From Parcubacteria group bacterium (GTDB lineage: Bacteria > Patescibacteriota > Minisyncoccia > Moranbacterales > UBA2206): a stretch of 64,000 nt of DNA. Positions 4,701 through 32,994 of this stretch are shown piece by piece. The position numbers were made by a program, and so were the translations under genes. The stretch lies in the NCBI GenBank assembly GCA_041664225.1, contig JBAYLE010000004.1, positions 10,640 through 74,639 of the forward strand. Reading direction: 5' to 3'. Within the stretch, counting starts at the first letter, position 1; every line of letters begins with the position of its first letter. The notes below the pieces were generated by a model, which saw only the letters and a program-made list of their open reading frames with translations, did not search any database and was not told the DNA's origin.

Positions 4701-4789
4701 TTAAATCAGGAATATACACACATTCCCTTTTATTCATAAAAATATTTCCAACATCCTTGACTGTGGCGTGCGGACATAAAAAAGAGGCT
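4701..4789. repeat. 89-bp direct repeat, copy 2
   Basis: Perfect match to 1193-1281. Confidence 0.9.
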
Positions 4790-6200: not shown

Positions 6201-6267
6201 ATCTATTTTTTAGATATTTTAAGCAAACAGATTTGTTTGAGCCGAACTTTTCTGATATTATAAAAAA

Positions 6268-8049
6268 ATGATTAACACGCAGGAAAAAAATAATGGACTA
6301 GACTTGATCGCGTATTCCAATTGGGCGCTCATTAAGGATGTTGGAAGATTTGTAAAACCATACAAGGGACGCTTCATTTTTGCCAGTCTTTCCAGGTTTG
6401 TCAGTGATATTATCGGCCTATATCCTTCATACGGTTTTGCTTTGATTGTAACTTTTTTTAGTAATTATTCGCCGGGTGATTCATTGAGATATTTTTGGAT
6501 CATAATTATTATTCTAACCGCCGCCTATTTTTTTAAATATATATTTAGATTTTCAGCAAAGCAGGTTGGTTATCAGGTGGCGGAAAAAGTTGCTTTAGAC
6601 GCTCAAACTAAAACAATCAGCCATCTTTTTAGGCTGGATATTGCTTGGCATGAAAGAGAAAATAGCGGCAACAAGCTTAAAAGAATTCAAAAAGGGTCTG
6701 ATGGCCTGAATCGCATTTTACGTATGTGGATAAGTAATTTTATTGAAATTGGGATTAATTTGGTCGGCATGATTTTTATTTTAGGCAAGTTTGATTTGAA
6801 AGTTGGAATGGTGATGGTGCTTTTTGTCCTAACTTACTTTTTTATTTCTTTTTATCTTTTAACAAAGGCGTCTGCCGTTTCACAAGAGGTAGATATTCTC
6901 GAGGAAGGAGTTTTGGGCTTAATGTTTCAGTCGTTGAATAACATCAGAAGCGTTAAGATGCTGGATATGTCAGAAAGAATATTAAAAAAGATCAAACATC
7001 AGATAGGCGGATTATTTCAAAAAATACTGAAAAGAATCACAAGGTTTCAAACTCGGGGAGGCATTCTGAATCTATGGACGACATTATTTCGAGTAGGGGC
7101 AATAATAATAATTGCATATGGCATCATTGACAGAAAATATGAAGTTGGCTTCCTAGTTCTTTTTGTCGGTTATTTTAACAGCCTGGTTGACGCAGTAGAA
7201 GAACTTTCTGAGACTACCCAGGATTTGACTGTCAGTAAATATGGAATTGCCAGAATGCAGCGGACCGTCAACGAACCGATCTTGATCGACAATGAGTCTG
7301 GCAAGGTGGATTGTCCAAAAGATTGGCGAAAAATAAAAGTTATAAATTTATCTTTTGCGTATGGAAAGCGCAAAATTCTCAAAAATATTTCCTTTGAAAT
7401 AAATAGAGGGGAAAGGATTGGAATTATTGGTCTTTCTGGAGCGGGCAAATCAACGCTTATGAAATTGCTCATGAAAGAAAATGAGAATTATGAAGGCGAA
7501 ATCCTGATTGATGATTTATCCATAAAAAAAATAAAGAGAAGGTCGTATTTTGAAAAGTTGGGAGTCGTTTTACAGGACACAGAAGTTTTCAACTTTTCCT
7601 TACGGGAAAACATAATCTTATCCAGTCCAAAAGATTTTGGAGAAAAAGCTCTTAATGAAGCACTTTCCATTTCTTATGTCTCAGATTTTCTATCGAGACT
7701 TCCACAGGGGGTCGAAACCTTTATCGGAGAAAAAGGCATCAGGCTTTCTGGAGGTGAAAGACAAAGACTGGGAATCGCCAGAGCAATTTATAAAAAGCCC
7801 GAAATTCTTCTGTTAGACGAGGCGACTTCACATTTGGATCTCGAATCGGAAGAAAAAATTAAAGATTCTTTGCATAAGTTTTTTCAGAAAGTTACGGCTG
7901 TGGTTATCGCGCACCGATTGACGACGATCCGCCAGATGGACAAGATTCTGGTGATTGAAAAAGGCGAAGTTGTTGAATCCGGGAGTTTCGATGAACTGTA
8001 TAATGCCAAAGGCAGACTTTTTGAATTATGGGAAAAACAAAAATTCTAA
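6268..8049 (+). CDS. ABC exporter, fused permease + ATP-binding domains (MsbA/type-I exporter family)
   Basis: 6 TM N-domain; Walker A GLSGAGKST, signature LSGGERQRLGIARA, Walker B LLLDEATSHLD. Confidence 0.9.
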   Translation: MINTQEKNNGLDLIAYSNWALIKDVGRFVKPYKGRFIFASLSRFVSDIIGLYPSYGFALIVTFFSNYSPGDSLRYFWIIIIILTAAYFFKYIFRFSAKQVGYQVAEKVALDAQTKTISHLFRLDIAWHERENSGNKLKRIQKGSDGLNRILRMWISNFIEIGINLVGMIFILGKFDLKVGMVMVLFVLTYFFISFYLLTKASAVSQEVDILEEGVLGLMFQSLNNIRSVKMLDMSERILKKIKHQIGGLFQKILKRITRFQTRGGILNLWTTLFRVGAIIIIAYGIIDRKYEVGFLVLFVGYFNSLVDAVEELSETTQDLTVSKYGIARMQRTVNEPILIDNESGKVDCPKDWRKIKVINLSFAYGKRKILKNISFEINRGERIGIIGLSGAGKSTLMKLLMKENENYEGEILIDDLSIKKIKRRSYFEKLGVVLQDTEVFNFSLRENIILSSPKDFGEKALNEALSISYVSDFLSRLPQGVETFIGEKGIRLSGGERQRLGIARAIYKKPEILLLDEATSHLDLESEEKIKDSLHKFFQKVTAVVIAHRLTTIRQMDKILVIEKGEVVESGSFDELYNAKGRLFELWEKQKF

Positions 8050-8264
8050 TTTTTTAGAATATTCGCTGACTTTTTTGCTAAAAAACGAATCTTGTGCTAG
8101 TCTTGTTTTATGAATAAACAGACAGTTGTAAAAAATAATATCTGCGCTTGCTCTTGTGAAATCATCTCGAGAGCGGTTTGTTGTTGCGGCTGATAATTAT
8201 TCTGGACAACTTTCAAAAATAGCTCTCGGGATAACCGAGTTTTTTTATTCTTAAATCAAAAAAT

Positions 8265-9158
8265 ATGAAACATGAAAATATATTAAAAACAATCGGCCAT
8301 ACTCCGATGGTAAAAATTAACAGAATAAATTCGAACAGAAAAATAAATATCTACGCAAAAATTGAGGGTACAAATCCGGGCGGCAGCATCAAGGACCGGA
8401 TCGCACTCAAGATGGTTGAGCAGGCCGAGAAAGAAGGCAAGCTCGCAAAAGACAAAACGATTATTGAAGCGACTTCTGGCAATACCGGCATTGCTCTGGC
8501 TATGATCGGAGCCGTCAAAGGTTATGCTGTCGAAATTGTTATGAGTAAAGCGGTCTCCGCAGAGCGGATAAAAATGATCAAAGCTTTTGGCGCCAGGGTG
8601 ATTTTGACTGACGCGAAACTGGGGACCGATGGCGCGATCAAAAAAGCGCATGAGCTGGCCGAAAAAAATCCGCAAAAATATTTCATGCCCGACCAATTTT
8701 CCAACAAGTACAATAAAATCGCCCATTACGAAACGACAGCCAAAGAAATTTGGAAAGACACGCACGGCAAGATTGATTATTTTGTCGCGGCTATTGGCAC
8801 CTCCGGAACATTGATGGGGGTCGGAGCATATCTCAAAAAATATAATCCGAAGATAAAAATAATCTCAGCCGAACCGGTGAAAGGTCACTACATCCAAGGT
8901 TTGAAAAATATGGAAGAAGCCATTGTGCCGGCAATTTATAAAAAAGAATTGTTGGATGGCGTAATCATGATTGAAACCGAAGAGGCATTTGAGATGGCCA
9001 GAAAAATTGCAAAATTCGAAGGAATCTTTGTCGGGATGTCGAGCGGTGCGGCCATGTTGGCGTCTTTCAAAATCGCCAAGAAAATCAAAAAAGGCAATAT
9101 CGTCACGATTTTTCCCGATCGCGGCGAAAAATATTTGAGCACGGGCTTGTTTGGATAA
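8265..9158 (+). CDS. cysK: Cysteine synthase / O-acetylserine sulfhydrylase (PLP-dependent)
   Basis: GGSIKDRIALKMV (PLP lysine), TSGNTGIALA, GTSGT motifs. Confidence 0.9.
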   Translation: MKHENILKTIGHTPMVKINRINSNRKINIYAKIEGTNPGGSIKDRIALKMVEQAEKEGKLAKDKTIIEATSGNTGIALAMIGAVKGYAVEIVMSKAVSAERIKMIKAFGARVILTDAKLGTDGAIKKAHELAEKNPQKYFMPDQFSNKYNKIAHYETTAKEIWKDTHGKIDYFVAAIGTSGTLMGVGAYLKKYNPKIKIISAEPVKGHYIQGLKNMEEAIVPAIYKKELLDGVIMIETEEAFEMARKIAKFEGIFVGMSSGAAMLASFKIAKKIKKGNIVTIFPDRGEKYLSTGLFG

Positions 9159-10374: not shown

Positions 10375-11869
10375 TTGGGTTTAAATTATGGCGCAATGAA
10401 AAATGTTGAAAATAATGATTATCGAGTGAAGATGTCGAGGCATTTGAAGCAAAAAAAACGAAAAAAGATCATTCTTTCAAAGAGATACTTGAAGGCCAGG
10501 TGGAAGCATTTTCTTAGTCAGGATGTGGACGGAATCTTATTGATAGAGGGAGTAGGGGTAATCGATCTGCAAAAAAAATATGGCACCCCACTGTTTATTT
10601 TGATTGAAGAAGAAATACGCGCAAAGGTGCGTGAATTTATTCACGCATTCGATTATGTTCCATTTAAGATGCGATATGCATCAAAATGCAATTCAAATTT
10701 AGAGGTTCTTAGAATTATTAGGGAAGAAGGAGCTGAATTAGACGCGAGTAGCATCGGAGAAATCATTCTTGGCTTACTAGCTGATTTTTTACCCGAGCAA
10801 ATAAACTTTACTAATTTGTATAAAACTGAGCAGGATATTATGTTTGCTGCCTCTGTTGGGGTACACTCGATAACTCTGGATTCTCTGGAAGAGCTAGATA
10901 TGGCCGTTACTATCTCTGAAAAATTCAAAAAAAGTATCCCAATAATGGTGCGGGTTAATCCAATGATTCACGAGGGTAAGTATAATACGCAACATCAACA
11001 ATACGGCATACCACACGCATATATACGGGGGGGCGTTGATAAAAATAAAAGAGGCAAAATATTTAAAATTAAGAGGATTCCATTTTCATGGATCATATGC
11101 ATACAATCATAGAGGGTATTTTTTGGCAGCGAAGAAAATAACATCCTTGGCGAAATTAGCCGAAAAATATGGACTAAAAATAGACAGCATCGACTTGGGT
11201 GGTGGGTTTCCGATTGAGTCTCCAAAGGCTATGCGACCGGGGAAATATTTTACTTTTAAAGAGTTTGCGGAAAAGTTTGTACCTTTTTTTAAAAAATTAT
11301 GCAAAAAACAAAATCTAGGAAATATTACATTAATATTTGAACCCGGTAAGTCGATTGTGGCTAACTCTGGCATTGGGTTAATACAGGTGGTTAGCCGAAA
11401 GAAATTAAATTCAAAAGAGATGCTAGTTACCAATTCGTCTTGTTATTCTATGTTACCTGACATATTAGTTTCCAAATGTGTTTATGATGTGCTGCCAGCA
11501 AGCAAGATGAAGGCTCCAAGAACGCACGAGTATGATATTGCTGGGTGTACTTGTGATTGCATTGATATTATTAAGAAAAAAGAATTAATGCCTAAGCTGG
11601 AAGGTAACGATTTGTTGGCTGTAATGGATTGTGGCGCGTATAGCTCAGTGTTGAGTTCAAATTTTAATAGTCTCAAGAGAGCACCAGTTATTATGGTAAG
11701 TAGGGATGGCAAAAGTCGACTAGTTCGTCGAGGAGATAGATTCTCCGAGATGTTTGGTCCAGAGTTGGATGTGCTCAAAGTAGCTGATCCGAAAGAGCTT
11801 AAAAAATTTTATAATTTAGCGAGATTAAACATAAATAAAGTTTGGGGAGGGCAAGATAAGAAGCATTGA
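10375..11869 (+). pseudogene. Frameshifted PLP-dependent decarboxylase of the LysA/ornithine-decarboxylase (fold-type III) family
   Basis: N-part (frame 1, to 11112) has YASKCNSN PLP-lysine motif; C-part (frame 2, from ~11036) has FHFHGS, DLGGGFP, EPGKSIVA, CGAYS motifs; +1 frame change located at a G7 homopolymer (11027-11033). Confidence 0.7.
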
Positions 11870-11959
11870 ATTTTCAAGGCATTGATTGGATTATAATTTA
11901 CTAAAAAGTTACATAAAAAAGCATGCGTTTGACAGTTTTCCATGTATATAATAAAATTA

Positions 11960-12096
11960 ATTTATGAATAAATCACAGATAAACTCACTGCGACGTCGTA
12001 GAAACCCGGAGGCTATGCTCAGAGTTGTTTGTTAGTGTTTAAAATAAGCGAAATTATTTAAAATATTGTCAAACGGCTCCGGTCGTTTGTTTTTGA
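11960..12096 (+). ncRNA. Candidate small RNA / cis-leader, copy A (conserved GTTGTTTGTTAGTGTTTAAA box + terminator)
   Basis: Promoter-like TTGACA/TATAAT around 11929-11955, conserved 20-mer 12024-12043, hairpin 12069-12089 + T-run; homologous to 14197-14332. Confidence 0.3.
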
Positions 12097-12204: not shown

Positions 12205-14046
12205 ATGACTATCAATAGTATTAAACTGCATATCTTAGGCATAACTCAAGAGGTTATCCAAAGGGTATTAGGAAAGCAAATCAACAATCTGTCAATCAGC
12301 TACCCTCCGGATGTTAAATTTGGAGATTTCTCGATTGAGTTTTTTTCGGTCGTGAAAGAGGAGGTTAAAAGTCTTTTGGGAGGCATTTCCAAGGAAGAAA
12401 TGGGAAAAGAGGAAAAAGAAGCCTACAAAAAGGGCATGGCGAAAGGGATTCAAGACGCTATTGCAAAAATAGCTAAATCTGTTGCCGAAATTCCTGCGGA
12501 CGATGTTATCGAAAAAGTGAGCATCGTTGGTCCATATGTGAATTTCAAAGTTAGAAACTCTGCCTATTTCGGATCAATTTTCTCGGAAGTTATTGAAAAA
12601 GGAGGATTATTCGGAACTTCAAATGTTGGATCAGGACAGAAAGTGATGGTTGAATATCTTTCACCAAACACCAACAAACCTCTTCACCTTGGACATTTGC
12701 GGAACGGATCGACTGGTATGTCAATTTCAAATATCCTCGCATTCTGCGGGTATGACGTTGTGAAGAGCAATCTTGTGAATGATCGCGGTGTGCATATTTG
12801 CAAATCAATGCTGGCTTGGCAGAGGTGGGGCAACGGAGAAACGCCCCAATCAGCGGGATTGAAAGGTGACCACTTTGTTGGTAAATGGTATGTGCGTTAC
12901 AGTCAGGAAGAAGAAAAAGATCCTTTACTCGCTGAAGAAGTCCAAGTGATGCTCAAGAAGTGGGAAGAGGGAGACCCGGAAACGATTGAGCTTTGGGAAA
13001 AAATGAATGGCTGGGTTTATGAGGGCTTTGCCGAAACCTACCGTGACTTCGGGTTGGAATTCGATACGTTTTATTACGAATCGCAAACCTATATGTTAGG
13101 CAAAGACATCATTGAAGAGGGTCTCGCAAAAGGAGTTTTCAAACGGGATGAAAAGAATATAGTTACCTTCTTCTTACCAGAAGAATTTGGAAAAGACAAA
13201 GAAGGTAACGATAAAAGGGTGACAGTTCTGCGTTCTGATGGCACCAGTGTGTATATCACCCAGGATCTGGGAACTGCCCTTAAAAAAGTGGAGGATCACA
13301 AGTTGGACCGTTCGATCTATGTCGTCGGTTCGGAGCAAGTTCACCATTTCAAGTGTCTGTTTATGATTCTCAAGGCCCTCGGTTATGAGTGGGCAGAAAA
13401 TTGCTTCCATCTTTCGTACGGGATGGTTTATCTGCCCGAAGGCAAGATGAAGTCTCGGGAAGGAAAAGTAGTGGATGCTGACAATCTCATCAAGGATGTT
13501 GAGAAAATAGTATCTGGTGAAATCGAAAAAAGAAATCTGGATATTTCTACGGACGAACTTGAAAGGAGGGCGCATATTATCGCAATAGGTGCGATAAAAT
13601 TTCATTTGCTGCGGGTAACCCCTGGCCAGGATATTCATTTTGATCCTAAGGAGTCAGTTTCTCTGGATGGGTTTACTGCCTCTTATTGCCAATATGCCTA
13701 TGTGAGGGCAGCGGCTATTTTGAGGGCAGTGAAAGATTCCACAGATGAAATCGATGATATTGACTTCTCAGTGTTGGGTGAGCGGGAAGAAATTATTCTT
13801 GCTCAGAAGATAATGCAATTTCCCGAGATGATCGAATTAGCTGCAAGGGAATTAAATCCATCGCGTATTGCCAGCCATGTTTTTGAAATCGCTCAGGCCT
13901 TCAGTCAGTTCTATAACAAACATTCTGTGCTTAAGATCGAAAATGAACTGACAAAAAAGGCTCGGCTCGCGCTCGTCAGGGCGACGTCCATTGCGATTAG
14001 CAACGGCTTGCATCTACTCGGGATTGAAACTGTGGAAGAAATGTAA
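12205..14046 (+). CDS. argS: Arginine--tRNA ligase
   Basis: Class I HIGH-type motif PNTNKPLHLGHLRN, KMSK-like GKMKSREG, DALR-type anticodon-binding C-terminus. Confidence 0.9.
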   Translation: MTINSIKLHILGITQEVIQRVLGKQINNLSISYPPDVKFGDFSIEFFSVVKEEVKSLLGGISKEEMGKEEKEAYKKGMAKGIQDAIAKIAKSVAEIPADDVIEKVSIVGPYVNFKVRNSAYFGSIFSEVIEKGGLFGTSNVGSGQKVMVEYLSPNTNKPLHLGHLRNGSTGMSISNILAFCGYDVVKSNLVNDRGVHICKSMLAWQRWGNGETPQSAGLKGDHFVGKWYVRYSQEEEKDPLLAEEVQVMLKKWEEGDPETIELWEKMNGWVYEGFAETYRDFGLEFDTFYYESQTYMLGKDIIEEGLAKGVFKRDEKNIVTFFLPEEFGKDKEGNDKRVTVLRSDGTSVYITQDLGTALKKVEDHKLDRSIYVVGSEQVHHFKCLFMILKALGYEWAENCFHLSYGMVYLPEGKMKSREGKVVDADNLIKDVEKIVSGEIEKRNLDISTDELERRAHIIAIGAIKFHLLRVTPGQDIHFDPKESVSLDGFTASYCQYAYVRAAAILRAVKDSTDEIDDIDFSVLGEREEIILAQKIMQFPEMIELAARELNPSRIASHVFEIAQAFSQFYNKHSVLKIENELTKKARLALVRATSIAISNGLHLLGIETVEEM

Positions 14047-14161: not shown

Positions 14162-14189
14162 TTGACAAAAAATTAATCCTTGTTATACT
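14162..14189 (+). promoter_or_regulatory. sigma70-like promoter TTGACA-16-TATACT
   Basis: TTGACA 14162-14167, TATACT 14184-14189. Confidence 0.5.
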
Positions 14190-14196
14190 TGGAAAA

Positions 14197-14332
14197 ACAA
14201 TAAACATGCAACACACAGCTCCAATAGTAGGCCACAGTAGAGTTTCAGATAAAATTCAAGGTTGTTTGTTGGTGTTTAGTTTAAATTAATTGAATACTGA
14301 CAAGCGACCGTAAGAGTCGCTTTATTTTTTTG
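14197..14332 (+). ncRNA. Candidate small RNA / cis-leader, copy B (GTTGTTTGTTGGTGTTTAGT box + terminator)
   Basis: Conserved box 14261-14280; hairpin gcgac-cgtaaga-gtcgc 14304-14320 followed by TTTATTTTTTTT. Confidence 0.3.
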
Positions 14333-25769: not shown

Positions 25770-26315
25770 GTGTGTATCATGAACGCTATTTTTAGGCGCA
25801 TCGTTGACACCTTTTTCGGTGTCGAAGAATATCAGGAATTAAAGAAAAAAGGAATCATTACAGGATTTTCATTTTCAGCTCTTTTCGGGGCTGAGTGGGG
25901 ACTGGTCGTTTTGGCGCAAGCACTGGTGACATTTCTTGTGAAGATCCACTGGTCGGAGATGCAAATATTCCTGCTGTTGTGGATTGGCAATATGGTTGTT
26001 TCATCCATCATCATCATTGTAAATAGCAAGGTTGATGGTGATCCGACACTTATGGAGGGTTCCCGCCGGCTTGTCGATTTGGCTTTCAAAAAGTCAATAA
26101 TTGGCGGTTGCATAATGGAGCTTCTCTATTTCATCGGACTCGTTGTTTGGGCGGAAACATCCTCGTTCTATATTTTTTTTAGAAAGAGGCTTGGACCGTT
26201 TCCAATGCGCGTAATTACTTTTGTTGCAGTTTCAGCTGTCAAGATGTATATCTGGACGAAGGTGTATATGTTTGGTGTTAGCGTGATTGACGTAATTTGG
26301 AATTTACTAAAATAA
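25770..26315 (+). CDS. Integral membrane protein, unknown function
   Basis: Multiple hydrophobic helices; start may be 25779 (MNAIF). Confidence 0.55.
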   Translation: MCIMNAIFRRIVDTFFGVEEYQELKKKGIITGFSFSALFGAEWGLVVLAQALVTFLVKIHWSEMQIFLLLWIGNMVVSSIIIIVNSKVDGDPTLMEGSRRLVDLAFKKSIIGGCIMELLYFIGLVVWAETSSFYIFFRKRLGPFPMRVITFVAVSAVKMYIWTKVYMFGVSVIDVIWNLLK

Positions 26316-26334
26316 GGAGAGGAGGTGAATTGAA

Positions 26335-26862
26335 ATGAAGCCAGAATTTAAGTTCTTGCATCCAAATGATTTCACGCAGGAAATTAAAGACCAGATTATT
26401 GATCTCGGAAAAAGAAGCGGCGTATGGCAGGAATCGGATATCGAATATTACAAAAAGCAATTTCCAAATCCGAGAAATATCAACATTGTGTATCAGAACG
26501 AAGAGGGGCTAATTACTGGCTTTATTCTGGCAAGACCCCACAATGAGGCGGTGTTAGACTATTTGGTCGAAGATCCCAAAATGACAAAAAGTGACACGGG
26601 AATGTTTTACATTGATCACGTTGGTGTTGATGAGTCCGTTTCCGGGAAGTTTCTTGGGCTGCATCTCATTATTGAGATGATTAAAGAGGCTAACAAGCGT
26701 GGAGTTTTCAGATTCTCTGCACACTGCAGGGTGATTAATGGTCTCAGTAAGGTTATCCAACGCAAGTTCAGGGCAGGCGTGGATGTTGTTAGAAGAATTG
26801 AGGAGTATACAGACTGTAACAACGAACCCTGTGATTATCTGGAGATTGAAGTTGTTCTCTAG
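26335..26862 (+). CDS. Hypothetical protein, GNAT-like fold suspected
   Basis: FYIDHVGVDESVSGKFLGLHLIIEMIKEA resembles GNAT beta4-alpha3 acetyl-CoA site; weak. Confidence 0.45.
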   Translation: MKPEFKFLHPNDFTQEIKDQIIDLGKRSGVWQESDIEYYKKQFPNPRNINIVYQNEEGLITGFILARPHNEAVLDYLVEDPKMTKSDTGMFYIDHVGVDESVSGKFLGLHLIIEMIKEANKRGVFRFSAHCRVINGLSKVIQRKFRAGVDVVRRIEEYTDCNNEPCDYLEIEVVL

Positions 26863-26953
26863 GCTCCGTGGTGGAAATCATCACTGGGCCTTTTTTATTT
26901 TACTTCCTTTTGATTTTCTGTTATATTTTGAGAGTGGATATCCTTATTAATAT

Positions 26954-28645
26954 ATGTGCAACTCCGCACCACAATTACTTTATTATACATACATCCCAGT
27001 TTTAGTGGGGACACTTGTATTGGGCTTCTTAGTTTTTTTGAGCAATAGAAAAAATTTAAGCGGTCGTCTGTTTTTTTTATTATCCATAAATACTTCCCTA
27101 TGGATTTTTTTGAATATGATGACTTGGCGGAGCGTGAATCTTGATAGCGTAGAGTTTTTCGATAAGCTCTCCATAGTAGGGATTATTGTGCCGGCAATAT
27201 TTCTCTATTTCAGCTATGTTTTTCCAGATGAAAAAAATATATCGATGAAGAAGGCCATGATCATATTTCTGCCTCTTTTGCCTTTCATCTTTTTAGCAGC
27301 GACAAGTCTTAATATTAAGTCAATTAATTCCTCAACTTCTGATTGCGAGTCGGTTGTGGGCCCACTTTATTATTTAATCCCCCTGATTTTTATTTTGTAT
27401 TGTGTGTGGTCGGTAGTTATTTTATTTACAAAATTTAGAAACGGAAATGAACAGGCAAAAAAACAAATAAAACTTGTACTGGTGGGATTTGTGATTTTTA
27501 TAGTGTGGGCAACCATTACCAATGTAGTCGCTCAACTAGTTGGTCCTGATAGTCTTTCCTTTTTTGGTCCCATTGGAGCAATAATTTTTATGTCTTTTGT
27601 TGCTTATGCAATCGTCAAATACCAGCTTCTAAGTATAAAGCTTATTGCTGCTCAAGCATTGACAGTCGTGATTTGGATATTGGTTGCTTCACAATACTTT
27701 TTTACAGACTCAACTACAAATATAATTCTCATAACCTTTACACTTCTCCTTTCAATTGGCTTTGGCATAATGCTCGTTAAATCTGTCAAACTCGAAGTTA
27801 AGCGCAAAGAAGAACTTCAGCAGATGTCAGACAAACTGTCGGAAGCCAATGATCAGTTGCGGAAATTGGATAATTCCAAATCGGAATTTATTTCCATCGC
27901 CTCTCATCAGTTGCGCACCCCCCTCACTGCCATCAAGGGCTTTGTTTCATTGCTTTTGGAAGGATCGTATGGCCAAGTTGTTCCCAAACAGCAGGATGTT
28001 TTGAATAAGGTATATACATCAAACGAGCGGCTAGTGACGCTGGTTGAAGATCTTTTGAACATTTCTCGCATGGAATCAGGAAGAATGGAATTTAAATTCG
28101 CGCCGTGGAACATGGAAACGGTCTGCCAGGAAGTCATGGACACTTTCATCCAGCGGGCTAAGTTTGAAAAGAAGTCTTTGGAATTCAAAAAGCCGGAAAT
28201 TCCTCTGCCGGAAGTCATGATTGATGGCACGAAAGTGCGGGAAGTTATTTCCAATATGGTGGACAACGCTTTGAAATATACGCCGAAAGGGGGAGTTACC
28301 CTCAAAGTTGAGCAGGCTGACGCGTCGCGCTACACGCCGAATAAAAATGGAGACATTGAGGACAAACCGATTGTTGGTCCGGTTATTCGCGTCACGGTTT
28401 CCGATACGGGCATTGGAATTCCAGTTACCGAATTGCCATATCTCTTTGCTAAGTTTTCCCGCGGCAAAGACGTTTCGCGCTTGAACACCGGTGGAACCGG
28501 GCTGGGCCTCTATGTCGGCCGTTCCATGATTGAAAACAACGGCGGCAAAATCTGGGCCGAATCAGACGGCGAAGGCCAAGGCTCGCGCTTCATCATTGAA
28601 ATCCCGATGCACCAGAGCAAGGAGCTGATGGAAAGGTGGGGATAA
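26954..28645 (+). CDS. Sensor histidine kinase with N-terminal multi-TM (7TM-type) sensing domain
   Basis: H-box SHQLRTPLTAIKGF, N-box NALKYT, DTGIGI, GGTGLGL ATP lid. Confidence 0.9.
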   Translation: MCNSAPQLLYYTYIPVLVGTLVLGFLVFLSNRKNLSGRLFFLLSINTSLWIFLNMMTWRSVNLDSVEFFDKLSIVGIIVPAIFLYFSYVFPDEKNISMKKAMIIFLPLLPFIFLAATSLNIKSINSSTSDCESVVGPLYYLIPLIFILYCVWSVVILFTKFRNGNEQAKKQIKLVLVGFVIFIVWATITNVVAQLVGPDSLSFFGPIGAIIFMSFVAYAIVKYQLLSIKLIAAQALTVVIWILVASQYFFTDSTTNIILITFTLLLSIGFGIMLVKSVKLEVKRKEELQQMSDKLSEANDQLRKLDNSKSEFISIASHQLRTPLTAIKGFVSLLLEGSYGQVVPKQQDVLNKVYTSNERLVTLVEDLLNISRMESGRMEFKFAPWNMETVCQEVMDTFIQRAKFEKKSLEFKKPEIPLPEVMIDGTKVREVISNMVDNALKYTPKGGVTLKVEQADASRYTPNKNGDIEDKPIVGPVIRVTVSDTGIGIPVTELPYLFAKFSRGKDVSRLNTGGTGLGLYVGRSMIENNGGKIWAESDGEGQGSRFIIEIPMHQSKELMERWG

Positions 28646-28684
28646 TACGGCAATTTTCAATTTTCAATTTTCAAACAAAAGGAG

Positions 28685-28705
28685 AGGCCGGAAGGCCTTT
28701 TTTCG
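28685..28705 (+). terminator. Small GC hairpin aggcc-ggaa-ggcct + T6
   Basis: Directly after HK gene and an (AATTTTC)3 microrepeat at 28650-28675. Confidence 0.55.
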
Positions 28706-28740
28706 TTTCAAAAAATCTGATTTTGAACTATAATATAATT

Positions 28741-28959
28741 ATGTTTAGTAAAAAAGATTTTCAGCCGATAATAAAATATCTGAAACCATACAAAAAAGCT
28801 GTTCGCGTGGTAGTCGCCTTTTTGATTTTGGAGCACGCCACCTATTTGGTTTTGCCCTTGATTTATGGAAAGATTGTGGAATCTGGCGACCACGTCGAAC
28901 TGCTCCAGCACGGCGGTGTATATCAGAAGCTAAGCGAATTGCAAAAGATAAGCGTTTAA
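28741..28959 (+). pseudogene. Remnant of an ABC exporter gene (N-terminal ~45 aa joined to C-terminal ~30 aa)
   Basis: MFSKKDFQPIIKYLKPYKKAVRVVVAFLILEH…PLIYGKIV (typical ABC permease N-terminus) abruptly followed by ESGDHVELLQHGGVYQKLSELQ (typical ABC ATPase C-terminus). Confidence 0.5.
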
Positions 28960-28964
28960 AATAT

Positions 28965-28993
28965 TTGACATTTTTTGACTCATTTGCTATGAT
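28965..28993 (+). promoter_or_regulatory. Promoter TTGACA-17-TATGAT
   Basis: TTGACA 28965-28970, TATGAT 28988-28993. Confidence 0.55.
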
Positions 28994-29003
28994 TTAGTCA
29001 GAT

Positions 29004-29096
29004 ATGAAAGGAAAACAATTTGTAAAAATTAATGTTGCAGGTCTCTTGCTACTCCTACTCGAAAATAGGATGGCAAGTTTTGTTTCTCAAAAATAA
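29004..29096 (+). CDS. 30-aa leader-like peptide with six consecutive Leu codons (MKGKQFVKINVAGLLLLLLENRMASFVSQK)
   Basis: Starts 11 nt after the -10; followed by alternative pairing segments and a terminator; no obvious SD. Confidence 0.3.
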   Translation: MKGKQFVKINVAGLLLLLLENRMASFVSQK

Positions 29097-29124
29097 TAAT
29101 TTAAGATAGGGAGTGAACGGCGAG

Positions 29125-29147
29125 CCATCCTAGAAGATGGTTTTTTT
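29125..29147 (+). terminator. Intrinsic terminator ccatc-ctagaa-gatgg + T7
   Basis: 5' arm (gccatcct) can alternatively pair with aggatggc at 29072-29079. Confidence 0.65.
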
Positions 29148-29203
29148 GTTGTTTAACAATTCAATCCACTGGATCATAGATTCAGCTAAATAAAGGAGGG
29201 GTT

Positions 29204-29413
29204 ATGGTTGAAAAAAGAGCAAATAGAAAGTGTAATCGTCTTTATCGTAGCAGCCGTTGTAAGAAGAAGCAGGATAATGAGTTCTGTTCCGGAAATGATG
29301 ATTATTGTCCATCCAGGGATGGACTCCGCGGGGAAAAAGATTTTGTCGGTGAATTTCATTTTATTCCCAAAAGTAGCGCGCCAATAAGGCAGCCGAATGC
29401 CGATGCCGCTTGA
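29204..29413 (+). CDS. Small basic Cys-rich protein (69 aa), unknown function
   Basis: Excellent SD AGGAGG 6 nt before ATG; four Cys (possible zinc ribbon). Confidence 0.35.
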   Translation: MVEKRANRKCNRLYRSSRCKKKQDNEFCSGNDDYCPSRDGLRGEKDFVGEFHFIPKSSAPIRQPNADAA

Positions 29414-29455
29414 TCTTTTCTGAAGGGTTGTCCAAACGGGCAATCCTTTTTTAAT

Positions 29456-29483
29456 TTGACAAAAAACAACATTATGCTAGACT
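29456..29483 (+). promoter_or_regulatory. Promoter-like TTGACA-16-TAGACT
   Basis: TTGACA 29456-29461. Confidence 0.35.
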
Positions 29484-29615
29484 AGAAATAATAAATAAAC
29501 ACATGAGTAGTTTTAATTACAAACAACAGCATTGGCTTCGCCGTCGTTCTGATGAAATAGGCTGTTTTTTTGTGTTTGAAATACGTTATTAAATAACTTC
29601 ATTATACGCAGACAA

Positions 29616-29645
29616 AAACAGCTTGTTTCACAAGCTGTTTTTAAA
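29616..29645 (+). terminator. Intrinsic terminator acagcttg-tttca-caagctgt + TTTTAAATT
   Basis: Perfect 8-bp stem. Confidence 0.75.
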
Positions 29646-29823
29646 TTCACAAAAAATACTATGATTAAAAATACGCCAAAATTAAACCATTGGGGACGCA
29701 GGAATTTCGATTCGAAGATCGGTGTATTTTTGCGTTTTGTTTTGCAGTAAGAGGCTTCAATAAAACATGACAATAGACCGGTCTTAGACCGGACTATTTT
29801 TGTACCTTGAAAGGAGGACCGTC

Positions 29824-30633
29824 ATGGTTATCGGCGATTATGGTTCGTGGGTAGTGGAGAGTGAAAAAGCGTATCTCAAGGCTGATCCTGAAGTTGCAAT
29901 CAGTCTTTGCCCAAGTGATGCGCAGGCAGTGTCAGAGGGCTGGTGGGGATATCCCACCTGCGAGAAAGACTTGGTTAGTGGCATCTGTATTTTTGATGCC
30001 AGGTGGGCGCTGGAATTTGATAACGGGAAAGAAGCGGGAACGAGAAAATCTCTTTCTCTTCCGCGAGAAAGAGAAAAAGCGTTCAAGATGATGGAAAAGG
30101 GGCGTAAGATAAAAAATCTTTATGTTCCTACGGAACTTAGCGCCTATCATCTAAAGTTGCTCCAATGGCAAGTGAAAAAAATTTGCCAGCTTTCTCCGAA
30201 GAGAATACTCTATCATCTGCCAGTGGGTGAGTACGAAATCTTTATTCAGGAGCTTGAGACAGCGGCGGGAATAGATTTGCCTTGGCTGTATGTCCGCCTG
30301 GAAGAAATCTCCGAGAAAATAAAAAATTATTTTCTTGAAAACCTCACTCGGCAAGGCGTCGATGCAGGCAAAGTTGAGTTTATAAGGCCGCTTGAAATGG
30401 GGGCGCAGAGCACGGATGATTCATTCGGTTATCCATACTTGTTCCCGTACAAATTTGGGATGTCGCCGGAAAGTATGATGGGATTAGAGGACTTAGTTGA
30501 GCTCAGGATATTACTGAGGGCGAAAATGGAGATGAATTATGACATCCCGGTTCTTTGCGCGGTGTTGGAGGTTCCGCATCCATATCTGATTAGGGAGGAT
30601 AATGGCGGCGGGGTCATAACCGTGGAAAACTAA
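29824..30633 (+). CDS. Hypothetical protein (269 aa), no recognisable family; locally G+C-richer
   Basis: SD AGGAGG 6 nt upstream of ATG at 29824 (ORF-track start 29800 less likely). Confidence 0.7.
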   Translation: MVIGDYGSWVVESEKAYLKADPEVAISLCPSDAQAVSEGWWGYPTCEKDLVSGICIFDARWALEFDNGKEAGTRKSLSLPREREKAFKMMEKGRKIKNLYVPTELSAYHLKLLQWQVKKICQLSPKRILYHLPVGEYEIFIQELETAAGIDLPWLYVRLEEISEKIKNYFLENLTRQGVDAGKVEFIRPLEMGAQSTDDSFGYPYLFPYKFGMSPESMMGLEDLVELRILLRAKMEMNYDIPVLCAVLEVPHPYLIREDNGGGVITVEN

Positions 30634-30637
30634 GCTT

Positions 30638-30672
30638 GGCGGAGGATTTTAACAAAAATCCTCCGGCCACTT
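30638..30672 (+). terminator. Hairpin cggaggatttt-aac-aaaatcctccg with weak T-run
   Basis: 11-bp perfect stem. Confidence 0.5.
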
Positions 30673-30719
30673 TTGAAAATCACTTAATTTTGATAACATA
30701 ATAATTAATTGCAAAAAGT

Positions 30720-31760
30720 ATGTTAGAAATCACAAATAAAAATTTTAAAATTTATCTGCAAGGAAGCATCTTCTTGGCTACGGGAGGCGGGCTGCCCTTT
30801 TCTGTCAGTCAAAAAATTTTTAAATTTATATTCAGCCGAAAAAAATCGATAAAGATCCTTGACTTGGATGAAATTTCCCCAAATGGTTATCTGGCGTCTG
30901 TTTATGGAGTAGGCGATCCGTCAAAGGCCGATTCAGTTAAGGAATCAGCATTAGTGAAAACGGCTCTGAAGAAATTTAAAAAGCTGACCGGTATAAACAT
31001 TGCTGGGGTGATTCCCGGAGAAATCGGCGCGGAAGTTTCTTCTTTTTTAGCCGCTAGTTTTTTGAATTTGCCCGTGGTCGACTCCGATCTAGTAGGAGGC
31101 AGAGCGGCTCCCGAGATACAAATGGATGTTTTTTCAATAGCCGGCCTGAAAATAACGCCAGTAATGGGCTTTTCTTCCAATAGCAAAAGCATCTTGCTGG
31201 AAAAAAATATCAGCGCGAACGAAATCGAAAAAACGTTACGCCCTTTTTTTGGAAAAAATGGCGGGAGCGGCATAATCATCGGCTATTTGGTGAAAAATTC
31301 CGTATATGGCAAATTCGGTATGCGGGACACTCTGTCGTTGGCTTTAAAAATCGGAAATATTTTGGAAAAAAAAGACATCGCAGAGCTTAAGCGAATAACA
31401 AAATGTAAAAAAATTATTAAAGAAAAAATCATCAGAACAAACTTAAAAAGTAGCAGCGGTTTTTTGCAGGGGAAAGTAATTTTTGAAAATCATGAGATTT
31501 TGGTGAAAAATGAAAATATCTTGCTTATCAGAAAAAACAAAAAAATAGCCGAAGCGCCAGAACTTATAATTATAATGGATGAAAATTTGAAGCCGATCCA
31601 TAATACCGAGATTGGGGAAAAGGTGGGCAAAAAAGTTCTTATTGTCGTTTTACCCGCGATGGGTTATTGGAAAAGTAGGAAGGGCTCCCAGCTGTGGGAA
31701 GCAACTGTAAAAAATTTGGCAAATAGGGCGATTTATAATAAACTAACTGTATTAAGATAA
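30720..31760 (+). CDS. Hypothetical protein, DUF917 / hydantoinase-like (S-Me-THD-like) family suspected
   Basis: LATGGGLPF and VVDSDLVGGRAAPE motifs recall the family; from memory only. Confidence 0.45.
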   Translation: MLEITNKNFKIYLQGSIFLATGGGLPFSVSQKIFKFIFSRKKSIKILDLDEISPNGYLASVYGVGDPSKADSVKESALVKTALKKFKKLTGINIAGVIPGEIGAEVSSFLAASFLNLPVVDSDLVGGRAAPEIQMDVFSIAGLKITPVMGFSSNSKSILLEKNISANEIEKTLRPFFGKNGGSGIIIGYLVKNSVYGKFGMRDTLSLALKIGNILEKKDIAELKRITKCKKIIKEKIIRTNLKSSSGFLQGKVIFENHEILVKNENILLIRKNKKIAEAPELIIIMDENLKPIHNTEIGEKVGKKVLIVVLPAMGYWKSRKGSQLWEATVKNLANRAIYNKLTVLR

Positions 31761-31764
31761 ACCT

Positions 31765-32994
31765 ATGAAACAATCGCAACTTTTTACCAAGACTCAAAAA
31801 GACGCGCCGAAGGACGAGGTGAGCGTGAACGCGCAACTTTTGATCCGGGCCGGCTTTGTGGACAAACTCATGGCGGGAGTTTACACATTTTTGCCGTTGG
31901 GGCTCCGCGTCATGAAAAAGATTGAAAATATCATCCGCGAAGAAATTAACGCGATCGGCGGACAAGAAATTTTTATGCCAACCTTGCAACCGAAGGAAAA
32001 CTGGCTGAAAACCGGGCGCTGGGACACGATGGATGATTTGTATAAGGTGAAAGACGCGAGTGGCAAAGAATTCGCGCTCGGGCCGACGCACGAAGAAATC
32101 GTGGTGCCTTTGGCGCAAAAATATATCAATTCCTACCGAGACTTTCCGTTTTATGCCTATCAATTCCAAAATAAATTTCGGATGGAACTACGCGCGAAAT
32201 CCGGCATCTTGCGCGGGCGGGAATTTATGATGAAAGATTTATATTCTTTCCATTTGAGCGAAGATGATTTTAACGCATATTACGAAAAAGCGGCCAAAGC
32301 TTATGAAAAGATTTTTCAGAGAACAGGGATTGGCGAAAAAACTTACAAGACTTTTGCTTCGGGTGGATCTTTTTCCAAGTATTCGCACGAATACCAAACG
32401 GTGACGCCGGCCGGTGAAGACCTGATTCATATCTGTAACCAGTGCGGACTGGCGATCAATGAGGAGATAAAAGGCGAGGTTGATGTTTGTCCGAGCTGCA
32501 AGGGCGCGGATTTCCGCAAAGAAAAAGCCATTGAGGTGGGAAATATTTTTAATTTGAAAAACAAATATACCCAGCCGTTCGATTTCAAAATAAAAGACGA
32601 AAAAGGCGAGGAAAAAGAAGTGATCATGGGTTGTTATGGTCTGGGACTCTCGCGGCTCATGGGAACAATCGTGGAAGTTTTTCACGACGATAAAGGCATT
32701 ATCTGGCCGGAATCGGTCGCGCCTTTCAAAGTGCATTTGATCAGTTTGGGCAAAAACGACGAGGCAGAAAAAATTTATAACGACCTAATAAAAAAGAGCG
32801 TGGAAGTTTTGTTTGATGACCGAGAGGAAACAGCTGGCAAGAAATTTGCTGACAGCGATCTCATTGGCATTCCGTACCGCATTGTTGTGAGCGAAAAATC
32901 ATTGCAATCTGGTGGCGTAGAAATTAAAAAAAGAAACCAAAAAGAGACTGAAATTATAAACCAAAATAGTATTATTGAAAAATTGAATGCCTAA
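31765..32994 (+). CDS. proS: Proline--tRNA ligase, compact bacterial type without INS editing domain, with zinc-ribbon insert
   Basis: LLIRAGFVDKLMAGVYTFLPLGLRV, motif 2 REFMMKDLYSFH, CNQCG…CPSCKG, C-terminal anticodon-binding domain. Confidence 0.85.
   Translation: MKQSQLFTKTQKDAPKDEVSVNAQLLIRAGFVDKLMAGVYTFLPLGLRVMKKIENIIREEINAIGGQEIFMPTLQPKENWLKTGRWDTMDDLYKVKDASGKEFALGPTHEEIVVPLAQKYINSYRDFPFYAYQFQNKFRMELRAKSGILRGREFMMKDLYSFHLSEDDFNAYYEKAAKAYEKIFQRTGIGEKTYKTFASGGSFSKYSHEYQTVTPAGEDLIHICNQCGLAINEEIKGEVDVCPSCKGADFRKEKAIEVGNIFNLKNKYTQPFDFKIKDEKGEEKEVIMGCYGLGLSRLMGTIVEVFHDDKGIIWPESVAPFKVHLISLGKNDEAEKIYNDLIKKSVEVLFDDREETAGKKFADSDLIGIPYRIVVSEKSLQSGGVEIKKRNQKETEIINQNSIIEKLNA

Follow-up and report, generated by a model that had tools for sequence, protein, structure and literature searches.

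In this study, we focused on a leader region located upstream of a small gene, referred to here as cys4, in a 64,000-nucleotide (nt) stretch of DNA from the metagenome-assembled genome of a Parcubacteria group bacterium (contig JBAYLE010000004.1), the whole of which is called the window. This leader (28965-29150) is most probably a classical ribosome-mediated attenuator of transcription, in which translation of a leader peptide reads the level of charged tRNA-Leu, and one of a set of similarly built leaders in this Parcubacteria lineage. A preliminary description of this DNA had proposed an attenuator sensing Leu-tRNA, and this proposal is now supported by the conservation of the leader, by a covarying helix (2:3 below), by linkage to leuA in relatives and by leaders with cognate codons elsewhere in the window. 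The window has a G+C content of 40 % and its genes are all on the + strand. The metagenomic contigs L001 and L002 have the same sequence as the window; the relatives compared (contigs designated L and a number) are metagenomic contigs throughout, several of them short, and make up a small set. Scans of genome contigs gave no matches.

Structure of the leader and of the gene that follows

The features of the leader-cys4 unit are the following:

28965-28993, + strand, predicted sigma-70-type promoter (-35 box TTGACA at 28965-28970, 17-nt spacer, -10 box TATGAT at 28988-28993)
29004-29096, + strand, leader open reading frame (ORF) with 30 codons before its stop, MKGKQFVKINVAGLLLLLLENRMASFVSQK, with its ATG at 29004, 10 nt past the -10 hexamer
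29043-29060, + strand, putative regulatory run of six consecutive Leu codons, CTC TTG CTA CTC CTA CTC (leader codons 14-19)
29045-29057, + strand, segment 1, CUUGCUACUCCUA, within the Leu run, predicted to pair with segment 2 (anti-antiterminator)
29066-29077, + strand, segment 2, UAGGAUGGCAAG, predicted partner of either segment 1 or segment 3
29124-29132, + strand, segment 3, GCCAUCCUA, forming the putative antiterminator with segment 2 or the 5' arm of the terminator
29122-29147, + strand, predicted intrinsic terminator, stem GAGCCAUC/GAUGGUUU, loop CUAGAA, T7 at 29141-29147
29193-29201, + strand, strong Shine-Dalgarno (SD) sequence AAGGAGGGG
29204-29413, + strand, cys4, encoding a conserved four-cysteine protein of 69 amino acids (aa) with homologues found by HMMER and profile search
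29422-29449, + strand, terminator-like hairpin (12 pairs and a T run) closing the short leader-cys4 unit

The TTGACA-17-TATGAT promoter and the mini-ORF announced in the preliminary description are both present (28965-28993 and 29004-29096), the gap between them measuring 10 nt. The promoter matches the consensus at 11 of 12 positions, carries a TG in its spacer (28985-28986) and is the top promoter-like site in a 6-kb scan (26000-32000). Judging only from the promoter consensus, transcription would start a few nt before, or at, the leader AUG. Since the ATG at 29004 lacks an SD sequence and lies 10 nt past the -10 hexamer, the leader ORF appears to be leaderless or nearly so, and we infer that it is translated without an SD sequence.

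The run of six Leu codons stands as first described (29043-29060), except that it uses three kinds of codon and not four, i.e. CTC three times, CTA twice and TTG once. Five of the six belong to the two kinds of Leu codon least used by the window genes (CTA, 7 %; CTC, 11 %). Translated in six frames, the 64-kb window contains LLLLLL only once, against 0.09 occurrences expected from dinucleotide shuffles; this uniqueness, together with the conservation of the element in five other contigs, places the run beyond chance.

By sequence comparison, the 69-aa ORF is a real, conserved gene. An exhaustive HMMER and profile search retrieved Cys4 homologues in seven other clusters defined at 90 % identity, sharing 40-72 % identity, with the invariant residues C10, N11, R12, L13, S17, R18, C19, K21, C28, G30, C35, P36, R38, D39, G40, R42 and D46. 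The Cys-rich 69-aa ORF and its SD sequence had been noticed beforehand, and both were confirmed (29204-29413 and 29193-29201, respectively). The Cys4 protein gave no match against Pfam, NCBIfam and PDB, and its AlphaFold2 model, built from eight sequences, has a pLDDT (predicted local distance difference test) of 45. A hairpin of the GGATTGTCCAAATGGACAATCC type is also found 3' of the Cys4 gene in L007, L008, L015 and L016.

Three mutually exclusive pairings

The leader RNA can be folded into three mutually exclusive pairings, i.e. 1:2 (anti-antiterminator), 2:3 (antiterminator) and 3:4 (terminator). The terminator, ccatc-ctagaa-gatgg followed by T7, is present as previously reported, at 29125-29147; its core CCATC-CTAGAA-GATGG (CCAUC/GAUGG, 29125-29140) is extendable to 8 pairs (29122-29143), and the hairpin has an energy of -8.4 kcal/mol. 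The antiterminator helix joins UAGGAUGGC (29066-29074) to GCCAUCCUA (29124-29132) and excludes the terminator. This pairing had been recognised in the preliminary description but misplaced by a few positions: AGGATGGC lies at 29067-29074, not 29072-29079, and GCCATCCT at 29124-29131, not 29122-29129. The 1:2 hairpin, absent from that description, pairs the Leu codons with UAGGAUGGCAAG (-12.6 kcal/mol) and, added to 2:3 and 3:4, completes the four-segment geometry of an attenuator.

When the whole leader was forced to contain 1:2 and 3:4, its energy was -28.0 kcal/mol, and the same value was obtained when it was forced to contain 2:3; the terminated and antiterminated folds are thus of equal energy, as a switch should be. 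Compared with shuffled sequences, the 151-nt stretch folds with an ordinary energy (z = -0.52), so that structure alone is unconvincing and total energy uninformative.

The effect of a translating ribosome was modelled by masking an assumed footprint of 28 nt at each codon of the leader ORF and reading out the probability of the terminator stem. In the window leader, this probability is 0.28 without ribosome; it falls to 0.00-0.03 only with the aminoacyl (A) site at codons 12-18, and reaches 0.82-0.95 for stalls from Leu19 on, including the stop codon.

A small hairpin (CTGGATCATAGATTCAG, 29167-29183) was also observed between the terminator and the SD sequence of cys4; it is kept in L007, in L009 (CTGAAT...ATTCAG) and in L014, and is absent in L013.

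Conservation and covariation of the leader in relatives

The same or a related leader, with its terminator, precedes homologues of the 69-aa gene in five other metagenomic contigs. Four of them (L007, L009, L013 and L014) display a TTGACA promoter, an SD-less ATG 6 or 10 nt past the -10 box, a 31-codon ORF, the same terminator and then the Cys4 homologue. Their ORF stops one codon later than that of the window, without any frame-breaking indel inside. The predicted leader peptides are:

L007, MNEKQRVKSNISSLLLLLLENRMASFVSQKN
L009, MNEKQRVKSNSSILLLILLENRMVSFVSQKK
L014, MNEKQRVKFNSSILLLALLKNGMASFVYQKK
L013, MSLKKQIKSIIVIILLVLIENRMASFVSQKT

Across relatives, the first half of the peptide is free to vary while the run stays Leu-rich (Ile/Leu/Val-rich in L013), the runs being LLLLLL, ILLLILL, ILLLALL, IIVIILLVLI, LLLSLILL, LLALLLL and ...LLLL. 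The L008 leader is unalignable at the DNA level and follows the same design (TTGACA-17-TAGACT, 6 nt, ATG, MRNNSGNNLLLSLILLVGEGFCSLDKNA), with a distinct terminator (CCGGC-GGACA-GCCGG then AT8) and a Cys4 protein 54 % identical. L007, L009, L013, L014, L008 and L019 all retain the TTGACA box with its spacing. The ATG lies 10 nt past the -10 hexamer in the window and 6 nt past it in L007, L013, L008 and L019; this distance is 6-10 nt in all leaders of the window type (hereafter F-type) and of the L008/L019 type.

Helix 2:3 (AGGAUGGC/GCCAUCCU, 9 pairs) is paired in 100 % of 54 cells over the six alignable sequences (6/6) and shows two compensatory double changes, UA to CG in L013 and AU to GC in L014; in controls in which the partner was slid by 1-3 columns, only 22-43 % of cells were paired. 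Helices 1:2 and 3:4 are paired across relatives in 96.7 % and 93.8 % of cells, respectively, with changes that are one-sided and wobble-preserving. The terminator occupies the same position in all relatives and its sequence differs in the second subtype (L008, L019 and L017). Segment 2 and the 5' arm of the terminator co-vary across subtypes, as GCUGG/CCGGC in L008, GUUGGG/CCUGAC in L019 and GCUGGG/CCCAGC in L017. Both the Leu run and the alternative pairings, whose presence in relatives the preliminary description had suggested looking for, are therefore conserved (five contigs, and helix 2:3 in 6/6).

One contig of 1 kb, L012, departs from this scheme: at 230-400, a Cys4 homologue is associated with an L008-type terminator (CCGGCGGACAGCCGG and T8), without Leu leader. 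The fragment found in place of the leader, MKRAKIKVGIFFGGISPEHEK..., presumably belongs to the N-terminus of a D-Ala-D-Ala ligase, which it resembles on reading its translation, no search having been made. We treated L012 as a rearrangement or an assembly chimera.

Linkage of the leader and of cys4 to leuA

It had been remarked that no leucine biosynthesis gene follows the leader. This holds in the window, leuA being absent from it and from the 10 kb upstream, and the linkage of relatives to leuA offers an explanation. The puzzle of the missing leucine gene is resolved because relatives have either the leader before a LeuA-family gene or that gene before cys4. In L019 and L020, a TTGACA-16-TACAAT promoter is followed after 6 nt by the ATG of a leader (MKHYTAQNLLALLLLVEEGFCVG), a terminator and then leuA; the contigs of L017 and L018 begin inside the leader (...LLLLQKESFCAG), which is likewise followed by a terminator and leuA. 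The leader of L008 (LLVGEGFC), associated with cys4, is clearly related to that of L019 (LLVEEGFC). L015 shows a LeuA-family gene, with matches to 2-isopropylmalate synthase models (NF002086, E = 4e-51; TIGR00973, E = 1.4e-47), 16 nt upstream of the Cys4 gene. As the contig of L016 starts within the leader, it retains only the 3' portion of one of F type (...GAAATAGGATGGCGAGTTTTGTTTCCCGGAAATATTAA...GAGCCATCCTGAAAGATGGTTTTTTT), in its first 100 nt; behind it come an SD sequence, a degenerate LeuA-family ORF (frameshifted or truncated) and the Cys4 gene.

LeuA-family proteins (an HMGL-like and a LeuA_dimer regulatory domain) are common in metagenome-assembled genomes of Parcubacteria and Patescibacteria. 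The leuBCD genes are absent from the available flanks of the LeuA-family genes (L015, 1-1243; L016, 1-853; L019, 4001-5623), these flanks reaching several kb only for L017 and L019. On these gene orders, the ancestral operon was probably leader-leuA-cys4, leuA having been lost in the lineage of the window and in several relatives, so that the leader now abuts cys4.

Beside the leader, the segment 28744-28959 of the window is a remnant of an ATP-binding cassette (ABC) transporter gene, in which some 45 residues of the N-terminus run in frame into the final ~27 of the C-terminus. The C-terminal part (IVESGDHVELLQHGGVYQKLSELQKI) matches the C-terminus of an ABC transporter of L003 (E = 4e-6), and the remnant looks like the product of an internal deletion. 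The possibility that 28960-29450 itself represents a decayed ABC transporter or another gene was rejected: only 28744-28959 matches, and the leader and cys4 do not.

Similar leaders with other amino-acid runs

Further leaders of like build were found from promoter-like sites in the long intergenic gaps of the window. They share a strong promoter, an SD-less ATG at or near the inferred transcription start and 23-30 codons, followed by a terminator, an SD sequence and a gene; the ORF ends in a G/U-rich segment with which the terminator can pair through its 5' arm. Two of them directly precede genes related to the amino acid of their run:

8110-8193 (region 8074-8250), + strand, leader ORF MNKQTVVKNNICACSCEIISRAVCCCG, 27 codons, six of them Cys, without SD sequence, directly before a cysteine synthase gene
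11964-12035 (region 11929-12095), + strand, leader ORF MNKSQINSLRRRRNPEAMLRVVC, 23 codons, putatively leaderless, with a terminator at 12070-12089, directly before argS

The first one, with a TTGCTA-17-TAGTCT promoter and a CTCGG-GATAA-CCGAG terminator followed by T7, probably acts as a Cys-sensing attenuator. The cysteine synthase (8265-9158) matches TIGR01136 with 386.5 bits, above the cut-off. The second one contains four consecutive Arg codons, three of which are the rarest Arg codons, and probably acts as an Arg-sensing attenuator of an aminoacyl-tRNA synthetase gene, argS (12205-14046; TIGR00456, 445 bits). In the ribosome-mask model, the terminator probability of the Cys leader is 0.98 without ribosome, 0.00 at codons 11-15 (which include Cys12 and Cys14), 0.32 at Cys16 and 0.84-0.98 from codon 17; that of the Arg leader is 0.63 without ribosome, 0.00-0.01 through the last Arg codon and at least 0.62 further downstream. 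Taken over the leaders, the folding under a ribosome mask is supportive of attenuation, with which it agrees, but is not decisive.

Among relatives, L003 carries a leader with IPVAPQP before a proB-like gene and proS, and L008 (5549-5953) a putatively leaderless leader, MIKTSAKNYCFFFFTDFGRSDGF (FFFF), and a terminator, followed by a Cys-rich ORF of 65 aa, with tyrS and a prephenate dehydratase gene a few genes, or 1.6-2.8 kb, further downstream. Paralogy between the Cys4 family and this 65-aa ORF was considered and discarded: the hhalign probability of 1.6 % is not significant, and only the C-x8-C-x8-C spacing is alike. The residue of the run thus matches the downstream gene for Leu and leuA in three lineages, Cys and cysK, Arg and argS, and Pro and proBS, a match that sensing by a ribosome predicts and that a model based on RNA only does not.

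We also detected a second recurrent type of leader, composed of a TTGACA promoter, a mini-ORF, a G/U-rich motif (GGYTGTTTKTTDGTGTTT) pairing with the 5' arm of the terminator, and the terminator itself. Its mini-ORFs read for example MSSFNYKQQHWLRRRSDEIGCFFVFEIRY or MNSFN.KQHAPRNWNPGQLGCFCVFK.., with the consensus MNSFN...LGCFCVFK, and most copies are without clear codon run. The copies are:

14162-14330 (ORF 14206-14289) and 29456-29650 (ORF 29503-29592), + strand, second-type leaders of the window
L003 7587-7767 and 9855-10031, L004 226-410, L007 9490-9674 and L009 2082-2264, second-type leaders of relatives

Their targets are a GNAT gene with an AstE/AspA-like gene, an operon made of a 277-aa gene, an S-Me-THD-like gene and a prolyl-tRNA synthetase (ProRS) gene, and proB-proS. 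The aminoacyl-tRNA synthetase at 31765-32994 was first guessed to be a histidyl-tRNA synthetase and is a ProRS. Anchoring the search on the downstream 277-aa gene led to relatives (L003, L004) without the F element and revealed this second family instead. The G/U-rich motif of leaders E1-E3 is the predicted 5' strand of the antiterminator; its interpretation as a conserved peptide (GCxxVF) was rejected as sole explanation, the frames of E1 and E2 being different and E1 having an internal stop.

Proposed mechanism and alternative explanations

According to the mechanism that we propose, transcription would start at or just before the AUG, and the 30-codon ORF would be translated without SD sequence by a ribosome following closely behind RNA polymerase. 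With ample Leu-tRNA, this ribosome would pass the six Leu codons and reach the stop codon; 1:2 would pair, the 3:4 terminator would form and transcription would stop at T7. With scarce Leu-tRNA, the ribosome would stall on the rare CUC and CUA codons and cover segment 1, leaving segment 2 (UAGGAUGGC) to pair with segment 3 (GCCAUCCUA); the terminator would then be blocked and cys4 transcribed. We infer the stalling, the direction of regulation and the response to Leu from the sequence.

Several points weigh against this reading. On the side of the target, cys4, the gene regulated in the window, has no known link to leucine, and the LeuA-family proteins of relatives score under the NCBIfam equivalog cut-offs (306-322 bits versus 532), which makes the exact reaction of these proteins in the Candidate Phyla Radiation (CPR) uncertain. 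Concerning the signal, the L013 run mixes Ile and Val with Leu, so that branched-chain amino acids in general may be sensed. Since the 1:2 pairing also constrains the Leu codons of F-type leaders, DNA conservation alone is no proof of translation. With the ATG 10 nt past the -10 hexamer, the transcript would not begin with the AUG itself but with a 5' untranslated region of some 3-4 nt; most window genes have strong SD sites and, to our knowledge, leaderless translation has so far not been demonstrated in CPR bacteria. The terminator core consists of just five G-C/A-U pairs, and the mask model depends on the footprint, with a narrow stall window in L007 and L009 and none clear in L019. Finally, few sequences were compared, i.e. 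six F-type leaders and three of the second subtype (L008, L019 and L017).

Part of these observations would also suit an untranslated RNA switch responding to another signal, be it a metabolite, a protein or, after the manner of T-boxes, uncharged tRNA; the 'Leu codons' would then be no more than the pyrimidine-rich strand of a helix. The Leu codons do make the 5' strand of the 1:2 hairpin, the Leu-rich stretch of L008 and L019 likewise pairs with a purine-rich stretch after it, and the leader ORF has no SD sequence; moreover, the G/U-rich motif of other window leaders stands in different frames (E1 versus E2), so that its conservation is partly at the RNA level. We nevertheless consider such a switch improbable. 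An ORF of 23-31 codons starting 6-10 nt after the -10 box is present in every full-length copy of the leader, subtypes too divergent to align still carry Leu-rich runs, encoded by different codons, and the amino acid of the run fits the downstream gene in independent cases; nor did the leader match any Rfam family up to E = 10, T-box and leader families included. Even less probable, in our view, is a stand-alone small gene, i.e. a short mRNA for a hydrophobic peptide (membrane peptide or type I toxin) with the control of the next gene being unrelated. Such a gene would account for the strong promoter and terminator of its own and for the hydrophobic core of the peptide (LLLLLL, or IIVIILLVLI in L013), but a hydrophobic stretch of 6-10 residues is too short for a membrane span, the N-terminal half of the peptide is variable, and the Cys and Arg runs of similar leaders are not hydrophobic. 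It would also leave aside the conserved, covarying alternative helix that overlaps the terminator and the presence of the same leader type before leuA in relatives, and in L013 the SD sequence of cys4 comes directly after the terminator, which leaves no room for a separate promoter.

The loss of leuA raises a further alternative, in which the leader is a former leuA attenuator that has been decaying since, with constitutive termination or read-through. The absence of leuA from the window and the upstream 10 kb would be in line with it, as would the decay of the neighbourhood illustrated by the truncated ABC-transporter remnant (28744-28959). We hold this relic to be very unlikely: the promoter, the ORF, a Leu-rich run, the terminator and both alternative helices are intact in five contigs in which no leuA separates the leader from cys4, and the pattern of these copies, with compensatory changes and a second divergent subtype, argues for continued purifying selection. 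Attenuation by a translating ribosome thus remains the preferred reading of the leader.

Possible implications

If the attenuator reading is true, ultra-small, host-dependent bacteria would monitor the charging of individual tRNAs and use it to govern argS, the few biosynthetic enzymes left to them (cysK, proB and a single LeuA-family enzyme) as well as small proteins. Leaderless translation would also work in CPR bacteria. The Leu leader would mark both the Cys4 protein and the orphan LeuA-family enzyme of CPR bacteria as linked to leucine, which would give a testable handle on both. As the elements are short and their predicted outputs clear, they are suited to heterologous reporters. More speculatively, these leaders could form a CPR 'ribulon' of leaderless attenuators for Leu, Cys, Arg, Pro and Phe, some of which would drive small Cys-rich proteins (Cys4 and the 65-aa ORF of L008) acting as new amino-acid-specific starvation effectors, coupled to tRNA charging by way of the ribosome in bacteria of minimal biosynthesis; this extension we regard as possible but rather doubtful.

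Other observations in the window and in the contigs

An ornithine/arginine/diaminopimelate decarboxylase gene seems to be split in two overlapping ORFs (10375-11112 and 11036-11869), both of which have the Pfam domain Orn_Arg_deC_N, to which the second adds Orn_DAP_Arg_deC; a frameshift, decay to a pseudogene or a split gene may account for this. An exact direct repeat of 89 nt (1193-1281 and 4701-4789) is intergenic, its copies being 3.5 kb apart, and ends in a terminator-like AAAAAAGAGGCT... hairpin. The interval of L007 that separates the Cys4 gene from the following ORF contains, at 6260-6600, a promoter (TTGACA...TACAAT) and, after it, a G+C-rich, structured-looking stretch of about 250 nt that ends in a terminator; this stretch gave no Rfam match at gathering score.

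Comparison with known systems

The window and nine related loci were searched against Rfam at gathering score, without any match except the transfer-messenger RNA (tmRNA) of L019; up to E = 10, no family matches the leader (28965-29150). The Leu, His and Thr leader models gave no match to E = 10 in 28600-29850, and the leader is not a member of RF00512. The sole leader-family match in this interval is Trp_leader at 29685-29802, outside the element (E = 5.7; 15.5 bits versus a cut-off of 41); like it, all other low-scoring matches there are at chance level. No T-box (RF00230) was found, either at gathering score in the window and the nine related loci or at E <= 10 in 28600-29850.

Attenuation by leader peptides is a textbook mechanism for Proteobacteria and has also been described in Actinobacteria. 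Like the enterobacterial leu leader (RF00512) and the trp, his, thr, ilv, pheA and pheST attenuators, the element combines a short ORF with largely rare cognate codons and 1:2, 2:3 and 3:4 pairings, 3:4 being an intrinsic terminator, and its target in relatives is leuA; the argS leader parallels the attenuation of an aminoacyl-tRNA synthetase operon, pheST. Unlike the enterobacterial leu leader, it shows no sequence or covariance similarity to that family, its ORF is SD-less and by prediction at or near the 5' end, its host belongs to the CPR and its target here is the Cys4 protein. A full-text literature search returned no paper tying CPR, Patescibacteria or Parcubacteria to attenuators or regulatory leader peptides.

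The closest resemblance is to actinobacterial attenuators. For Corynebacterium glutamicum, PMC4046766, citing Morbach 2000, describes four Leu codons in the leader of leuA and, for ilvBNC, a leader peptide produced in the absence of a ribosome-binding site, and attenuators have been predicted in Actinobacteria for trp, trpS, leuS and ilvB (PMC1262725). The common points are a Leu run before leuA, a leader without ribosome-binding site, a terminator-based output and synthetase genes as targets. The leaders described here differ from them in belonging to another phylum with unrelated sequence, in combining leaders for Leu, Cys, Arg, Pro and Phe on one plan in small genomes poor in biosynthesis, and in the retention of the Leu leader past the loss of leuA.

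According to bioRxiv 10.1101/834739, the leaderless polycysteine short ORFs of the mycobacterial 'Cys ribulon' regulate translation: they free a ribosome-binding site that is otherwise sequestered. The similarity lies in putatively (near-)leaderless short ORFs with single-residue runs as predicted stalling sensors at several loci, the Cys leader at 8110-8193 being a direct analogue. Unlike the ribulon, the leader has a canonical intrinsic terminator, and its alternative helices engage an arm of this terminator and not the SD sequence of cys4 (29193-29201); this overlap speaks for regulation at the level of transcription. Unusual aspects are the CPR host, the SD-less start, the occurrence of several leaders with different runs in a reduced genome and a Leu sensor kept on cys4 after the loss of leuA.

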